Below, piece by piece: positions 27,119-27,638 of a stretch of 53,721 nt of DNA (positions within the stretch are counted from its first letter, which is position 1; every line of letters begins with the position of its first letter). Location of the stretch: the UHGV virus genome UHGV-0138535, one strand, 5' to 3'. The notes beneath the pieces were generated by a model that worked only from the letters and a program-made list of their open reading frames with translations, had not been told where the DNA came from and searched no databases. Made by a program: the position numbers and the translations under genes. This DNA comes from a virus.

Positions 27119-27274
27119 ATGAAACGCTATGTAGTAGTAATGCTAAATAACGCATTCGAACAAGTGGAAATAGCAATCGTTAAGGGTTTCGACGACGCAT
27201 TCAAATACGGTCAATTCATGATGAATGCGAAAGAAGATGAATACCGGGACTTCTTCCTGAAGGCACTTAACTAA
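27119..27274 (+). CDS. small hypothetical protein (51 aa; moron)
   Basis: ATG preceded by GAAGGAGG; opposite strand to tail operon; not in track. Confidence 0.45.
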   Translation: MKRYVVVMLNNAFEQVEIAIVKGFDDAFKYGQFMMNAKEDEYRDFFLKALN

Positions 27275-27291
27275 GGATGATGGGGTGAGTT

Positions 27292-27546
27292 ATGAAACTG
27301 GTAGCGATTGACAGAAATCTGAAAGCACAGAAAAACGCACAGGACCGGATCATCAAGAAAGGTAAGGAATTACTTAAAGCCTTTCTGAGAAAAGAAGTTT
27401 ACCCCAAAAAGTTACGCGACGGTTACGGATACAAAATGGATATCAATCTTGATTGGAGGCTGTTTAGCGAAGATTTGAAGGTTTGGTTAATTGTTGAGCA
27501 CCATGCCTATAACAAGTTATGTGGCGTGAAAGGCACTCATAAGTGA
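27292..27546 (+). CDS. small hypothetical basic protein (84 aa; moron)
   Basis: Track ORF with AAGGA RBS; followed by terminator hairpin. Confidence 0.45.
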   Translation: MKLVAIDRNLKAQKNAQDRIIKKGKELLKAFLRKEVYPKKLRDGYGYKMDINLDWRLFSEDLKVWLIVEHHAYNKLCGVKGTHK

Positions 27547-27597
27547 GTCGAGATATTCGAAAGGGGATATATCGCGCGGAATGGTCGTTTATAAATA

Positions 27598-27638
27598 CGA
27601 AAAATAACCCCGGCATTGCACCGGGGTTTAGTTTATTT
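27598..27638. terminator. bidirectional intrinsic terminator
   Basis: Hairpin CCCCGG-CATTGCA-CCGGGG flanked by A-rich and T-rich runs; overlaps 3' end of tape-measure gene. Confidence 0.5.

Follow-up and report, generated by a model that had tools for sequence, protein, structure and literature searches.

Bacteriophage T4 encodes RegB, an mRNA endonuclease of RelE/YoeB fold without a known antitoxin (PMC3014915). Among the temperate coliphages, the mEp021 group has been described as 'mEpimmI', Nus-dependent non-lambdoid phages reported by their describers as prevalent in the gut (PMC11893012). Text searches of that article returned no mention of the two genes treated here (PMC11893012). The protein family of one of them is already curated in Pfam (PF24732, ParE_like), the locus is auto-annotated in RefSeq as toxin-like, and toxin-like genes are common in prophages. 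The family name PF24732 is itself a prediction and membership is silent on a partner antitoxin; a search of the literature returned no experimental paper on this family.

We analysed a stretch of viral DNA of 53,721 nt (UHGV-0138535, hereafter the window), a region of which shares 82–96% DNA identity with the mEp021 group. Two small plus-strand genes, ORF1 and ORF2, are located there between minus-strand tail genes encoding an M-like and a tape-measure protein, to which they are opposed. The locus has the following features:

26598–26951, minus strand: gene of a lambda-M-type minor tail protein, 117 aa (PF05939, E = 1.2e-27; phrog_14)
26952–27118, plus strand: leader of 167 nt from the M gene to ORF1, from an alignment of 11 relatives
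27050–27078, plus strand: candidate sigma-70 promoter, proposed from conservation
27105–27112, plus strand: Shine-Dalgarno site of ORF1, GAAGGAGG, with a 6-nt spacer, read from the sequence
27119–27274, plus strand: ORF1, 51 aa, pI 5.1, phrog_29810, predicted compact ββαβ fold
27282–27289, plus strand: Shine-Dalgarno-like site of ORF2, GGGGTGAG, read from the sequence
27292–27546, plus strand: ORF2, 84 aa, pI 9.9, PF24732 ParE_like, phrog_1525
27606–27639, scored on both strands: terminator-like hairpin (stem 27606–27628) with a T-rich tail on the plus strand
27633–29975, minus strand: gene of the tail tape-measure protein, 780 aa (PF20155, E = 1e-49; phrog_1538)

Both ORFs of the original prediction, which had been made from the sequence alone, are present, each behind a Shine-Dalgarno site, and 17 nt separate the stop codon of ORF1 from the start of ORF2 (16–21 nt among relatives). 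The ribosome binding sites had been called strong, which overstates the case for ORF2, as GGGGTGAG is a fair, not a strong, Shine-Dalgarno site. The proposed acidic/basic character of the pair was borne out by a mildly acidic ORF1 product (pI 5.1) and a strongly basic ORF2 product (pI 9.9). Pooled over 10 relatives, pN/pS values of 0.07 for ORF1 and 0.19 for ORF2, with synonymous sites near saturation, place both reading frames beyond chance and show real genes under purifying selection. Gene calls elsewhere give ORF1 differing N-terminal extensions, and conservation starts at the start codon of the 51-aa form.

The proposal that the pair is carried as a moron was supported by its orientation opposite to the tail genes, its GC content of 40% compared to 50–51% in the two tail genes, a terminator, a promoter-like site and its distribution. 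When IMG/VR contigs were collected by means of the M protein and sorted by M identity, ORF2 was found between the tape-measure and M genes in 30 of 30 contigs with an M protein at least 82% identical to that of the window, while both ORFs were absent from all 50 contigs with M proteins of ~67–71% identity (L130–L179). In these more distant phages the tape-measure and M genes either lie 2–17 nt from each other or flank unrelated inserts of ~170–500 nt, which indicates that the junction is an insertion hotspot and that the cassette is confined to the mEp021 group. The cassette is a phage moron with a putative promoter of its own. It is 100% identical in prophages of E. coli M1/5, FAH and MS 21-1, and the orthologues in mEp021, mEp021_68 and mEp021_67, are both annotated as 'hypothetical protein'.

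Further opposite-strand cassettes occur among the tail genes. The window carries a second one at 30103–31147 (plus strand), between the tape-measure and DUF6246 genes. Its products are a protein of 219 aa, which matches PF11319 (VasI, type VI secretion) and is called TagO in strain M1/5, and one of 124 aa, whose BamE-like and DUF7738 matches are weak. The gap between the L and M genes of the window (26473–26597) comprises 125 nt only and lacks the second antisense cassette of relatives. In mEp021, M1/5, UMNK88 and most relatives, this L–M cassette consists of a 51-aa ORF, an ORF of ~117 aa and a KilAC antirepressor-like gene, and it adjoins a 61-aa minus-strand ORF.

The leader upstream of ORF1 is far better conserved than the synonymous sites of the two ORFs and contains long invariant blocks among the 11 relatives. 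It holds a candidate promoter with 9 of 12 sigma-70-like positions, composed of a −35 element TTCACA (27050–27055), a 17-nt spacer and a −10 element TATATA (27073–27078) directly preceded by TG, with a predicted transcription start near 27085. In 56 of 58 related loci, those without ORF1 included, the spacing of TTCAC...TGTATA is fixed and the spacer sequence varies, and this pattern suggests that the element serves as the promoter of ORF1 and ORF2. A simple consensus promoter scan gave no call upstream of ORF1 because it requires T at position 6 of the −10 element. Upstream of the candidate promoter, a direct repeat TACGCG-N4-TACGCG with a 10-bp period (26985–27000) is kept in nearly all relatives and could be a putative activator or repressor binding site. 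A perfect 17-bp palindrome, ATCATTG-TCA-CAATGAT (27011–27027), was considered as an operator and rejected; it is specific to the window, its arms show no in-register co-variation and, since it is not conserved, it was not treated as an operator and probably arose by chance. An Rfam search yielded sub-threshold chance matches only.

At the opposite end of the cassette, the hairpin AACCCCGG-cattgca-CCGGGGTT (27606–27628) is preceded by an A-run and followed by TTTAGTTTATTT, and it scores as terminator-like on both strands. It folds with about −18 kcal/mol, with z-scores of −2.75 on the minus and −1.45 on the plus strand. The bidirectional terminator of the original prediction thus scored on both strands, but its stem does not overlap the 3′ end of the tape-measure gene as had been claimed; it stops 4 nt short of the stop codon (27633–27635), and only the T-rich tail overlaps this codon and the last codons of the gene. 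In most relatives a CCCCGG-loop-CCGGGG hairpin with varying loops adjoins the tape-measure stop codon irrespective of what precedes it, and so marks the end of a variable cassette; as much as ~1.4 kb of additional genes can separate ORF2 from this hairpin. The distance from ORF2 to the tape-measure gene ranges in relatives from 93 nt to ~1.5 kb with up to five further annotated genes; ORF1 and ORF2 form the promoter-proximal portion of this variable unit, and the window represents its shortest form (93 nt). The records of mEp010, mEp013 and mEp554 bear, as the depositors' annotation, an ARNold-predicted minus-strand rho-independent terminator inside ORF2 (L013, 1983–2017, with equivalents in L012 and L014), and a terminator scan of the window found no counterpart there.

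The fold of ORF2 and its Pfam membership assign it to the RelE/ParE toxin superfamily. ORF2 matched PF24732 with E = 9e-12 and 45.3 bits (cut-off 24.4) over model positions 2–67 of 67, and the threshold was also passed by the distant relatives P0098–P0105 and the protein of phage Sortsne. Proteins of E. coli genomes in RefSeq that are identical or nearly identical to ORF2 bear the product name 'ParE family toxin-like protein'. The AlphaFold2 model (pLDDT 86.6) comprises a β-hairpin, one helix, three strands and a C-terminal helix. Its ten best structural matches are toxins throughout, in agreement with the superfamily at the level of fold, and among viral proteins it comes closest in structure to relatives in Yersinia phage fHe-Yen9-04 and Klebsiella phage RaK2. 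Among relatives which are 26–93% identical to ORF2, the residues K40, L41, R56 and H70 do not vary, and K23, G44 and N74 are almost invariant; in the model, R56 and H70 are located on or beside strands of the sheet.

At the sequence level the family is small and divergent, as an exhaustive profile search returned just 10 matches from 1.8 billion representative proteins. No significant sequence match of ORF2 to characterised toxins was found, and neither ORF2 nor its family profile had a meaningful match among PDB chain sequences. Alignment of the ORF2 family with E. coli RelE, YoeB and RK2 ParE by hhalign resulted in probabilities below 1%. Global pairwise alignments of ORF2 with YoeB, RelE and YafQ were no better than those with shuffled sequences (z ≤ 1.3), and for this reason an initial by-eye assignment of R56 and H70 to the catalytic residues of RelE and YoeB was dropped. 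By fold and Pfam membership, ORF2 may be either an RNase or a gyrase poison.

Our preferred reading, to which we assign a probability of roughly 0.4, is that the locus is a moron operon with a fixed ORF2 of RelE/ParE fold which needs no dedicated antitoxin and acts as an effector in the service of the phage. Such a small operon would have been acquired horizontally at the tape-measure/M junction of an mEp021-like (mEpimmI) E. coli prophage and would be transcribed separately, from the candidate promoter through ORF1 and ORF2 to the terminator. ORF2 would act without an obligatory antitoxin by binding the translation machinery or RNA (most probably) or gyrase (less probably), and would dampen or cleave its target. 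ORF1, encoded on the same predicted transcript, may modulate ORF2 and would be dispensable. Like the promoter, the proposed target, expression timing and possible ORF1–ORF2 contact are inferences.

The pair had been likened to toxin-antitoxin modules, and the rival that survives best is a canonical type II module in which ORF1 is a labile antitoxin neutralising ORF2 and the pair serves prophage stabilisation or abortive infection. We consider it unlikely, although several observations favour it. The two genes are small, adjacent and co-directional in one operon, which has one promoter-like site upstream and a terminator downstream. In order, size, charge and 16–21-nt spacing they are typical of such modules, and these traits were kept in 47 of the 49 related loci of the first survey. 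A small acidic gene placed 17 nt upstream of a gene whose basic product has the fold and family of a toxin is the canonical type II layout, and it counts against an ORF2 free of antitoxin. The strong purifying selection on ORF1, which is more constrained than ORF2, counts against it as well, as does the finding that ORF1 is always accompanied by ORF2, which was intact in 41 of the 41 loci where ORF1 was found. Strongly constrained and never apart from ORF2, ORF1 fits a functional partnership.

It also speaks for a type II module that ORF2 is repeatedly frameshifted in assemblies and ORF1 seldom. ORF2 is frameshifted in E. coli PAR (L017, 1745–1998), where ORF1 is intact, and at least seven distinct frameshifted or truncated ORF2 alleles are public (P0034–P0040, P0113), with breaks after residues 32–48. 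Varied alleles of this kind could be expected were ORF2 to burden its host; they may result from selection against ORF2 in certain hosts, or from homopolymer errors around CCCCAAAAAG. The number of truncated ORF2 clusters was judged too weak as evidence of toxicity, because clustering at 90% inflates frameshift variants.

The toxin gene of a type II module would not be expected to stay intact once its antitoxin gene is missing, and the locus departs from this expectation. E. coli UMNK88, a cultured strain with a complete genome, carries a prophage identical to IMG/VR locus L035. This prophage and a metagenomic phage (L032) lack ORF1, and their 84-aa ORF2 is intact and retains every invariant residue; the shared promoter-like leader is kept and runs through a good Shine-Dalgarno site directly into ORF2. 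The genomes of UMNK88 and L032 are 93% identical, and 8 synonymous and 2 nonsynonymous changes separate their ORF2 genes, indicating that ORF2 was kept, under purifying selection, without ORF1. These comparisons show the persistence of ORF2 without ORF1 in one lineage represented by two genomes, and the restriction to a single lineage weakens the antitoxin-free reading. In a further genome, that of strain MFDS1019527, a single-T deletion in codon 5 of ORF1 leads to a stop after 5 codons beside an intact ORF2 (L016, 1571–1590), which could be a real loss or an assembly error. If the type II module were true, ORF2 would have to be weakly expressed or weakly toxic in the lysogens without ORF1.

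The properties of ORF1 itself also argue against an antitoxin. It is a lineage-specific acidic protein of 6 kDa and a member of phrog_29810, labelled 'hypothetical protein' in RefSeq, and in the data examined it occurs in mEp021-like phages and prophages only. Searches matched ORF1 to no known family and to no antitoxin family or fold, and no recognisable antitoxin domain (RHH, HTH, Phd/YefM, AbrB) or other DNA-binding domain was found in it. Its model is predicted to be compact (ββαβ), not partly disordered, and gave generic fold matches only. NCBIfam had no match for either ORF, nor had the defence models of PADLOC-DB 2.0 at E values up to 10. A conserved palindromic operator, as would suit a type II module, was not found in the leader across the 11 aligned relatives. 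Moreover, the same ORF1 protein is found beside ORF2 alleles which are 67–100% identical to that of the window, and thus it is not co-inherited with particular ORF2 alleles.

The wider family of ORF2 points in the same direction. Distant relatives adjoin lysis genes in phages Sortsne, sortkaff, IME279 and Kc237 (of which Sortsne, Kc237 and IME279 are recorded under Caudoviricetes), while others are found within long one-directional arrays of small genes, and the contig of one also bears a ParA-type gene. The neighbours of these distant relatives are varied and include no ORF1 homologue, no antitoxin domain and no conserved partner. Thus the toxin fold of ORF2 and the canonical layout stand from the proposed toxin-antitoxin pair, but ORF1 matched no antitoxin family or fold, ORF2 stays intact without it and distant relatives have no conserved partner. 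The pair is probably not a classic toxin-antitoxin module.

Defence or superinfection exclusion, with ORF2 latent in the lysogen and active upon infection by another phage and with ORF1 as sensor or co-factor, appears improbable to us. Toxins of the RelE/ParE type are used in abortive infection, and both the location of the cassette and its independent transcription signals are typical of morons expressed in lysogens. In addition, the variable accessory genes which follow ORF2 in relatives include those of an HNH endonuclease and a zinc-ribbon protein. A defence function is, however, disfavoured by the lack of a match to PADLOC models and by homologues in phages without an evident role in lysogen protection.

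We likewise give little credence to a degenerate, non-toxic version of the toxin fold, according to which ORF2 is an RNA-, DNA- or protein-binding protein, such as one that regulates phage gene expression, and ORF1 an unrelated operon-mate. A cultured lysogen tolerates ORF2 alone, ORF2 is core-like in that it occurs in every mEp021-like relative examined, and it has no significant sequence match to characterised toxins. Classical RelE/ParE toxins have two N-terminal helices, and the ORF2 model shows a β-hairpin and one N-terminal helix. Nevertheless, the ten best structural matches are toxins, and the invariance of K40, L41, R56 and H70 across members of 26–93% identity hints at a conserved site of catalysis or binding in that part of the sheet with which RelE-type toxins act. 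For the alternative offered in the original prediction, a small-regulator module, nothing was found in support.

Returning to the antitoxin-free effector, a broader version can be put forward more tentatively. PF24732 may constitute a phage-specific, antitoxin-free branch of the RelE/ParE superfamily composed of RegB-like effectors with which phages reprogramme or throttle translation or mRNA; ORF2 would then be a fixed core gene of mEpimmI phages, antisense to the tail operon, and ORF1 a new small folded modulator. What the comparison of genomes adds to the existing annotation is the occurrence of ORF2 in every mEpimmI relative examined, its survival without ORF1 and the spread of its family without a conserved partner.

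If ORF2 is active without an antitoxin, phage proteins of RelE/ParE fold should not automatically be taken as parts of toxin-antitoxin modules, and the cultivable mEp021 phages would provide a tractable system for the uncharacterised family PF24732. If, on the other hand, ORF1 neutralises ORF2, it would represent a new type of antitoxin, folded as ββαβ and without a DNA-binding domain. The practical stakes are modest either way, given that the locus is auto-annotated and toxin-like genes are common in prophages.

In comparison with known systems, the cassette resembles the lambdoid morons HK97 gp15, lambda bor and lom as an extra unit between late or tail genes with a promoter-like site, a terminator and deviant composition. 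Unlike these sporadic units, it was present in all examined members of a single phage group; it also runs antisense to the tail operon, and its product is a protein with a toxin fold, not a membrane protein. Among the ParE gyrase poisons (ParDE, PaaA2-ParE2), the ParE chains were below the RNase toxins in structural score against ORF2. PaaA2 is helical and partly disordered, whereas ORF1 is predicted to be a folded ββαβ protein, and the window has no third regulator gene. From the interferases RelE, YoeB, YafQ and HigB, ORF2 differs by the lack of significant sequence similarity and by one N-terminal helix in its model, as against two in these toxins; it also has no adjoining antitoxin of the YefM, RelB, DinJ or HigA type and occurs without its neighbour ORF1. 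A precedent for ORF2 is RegB of T4, which is phage-encoded, has a RelE/YoeB-like fold and no known antitoxin, and serves the control of phage gene expression (PMC3014915).
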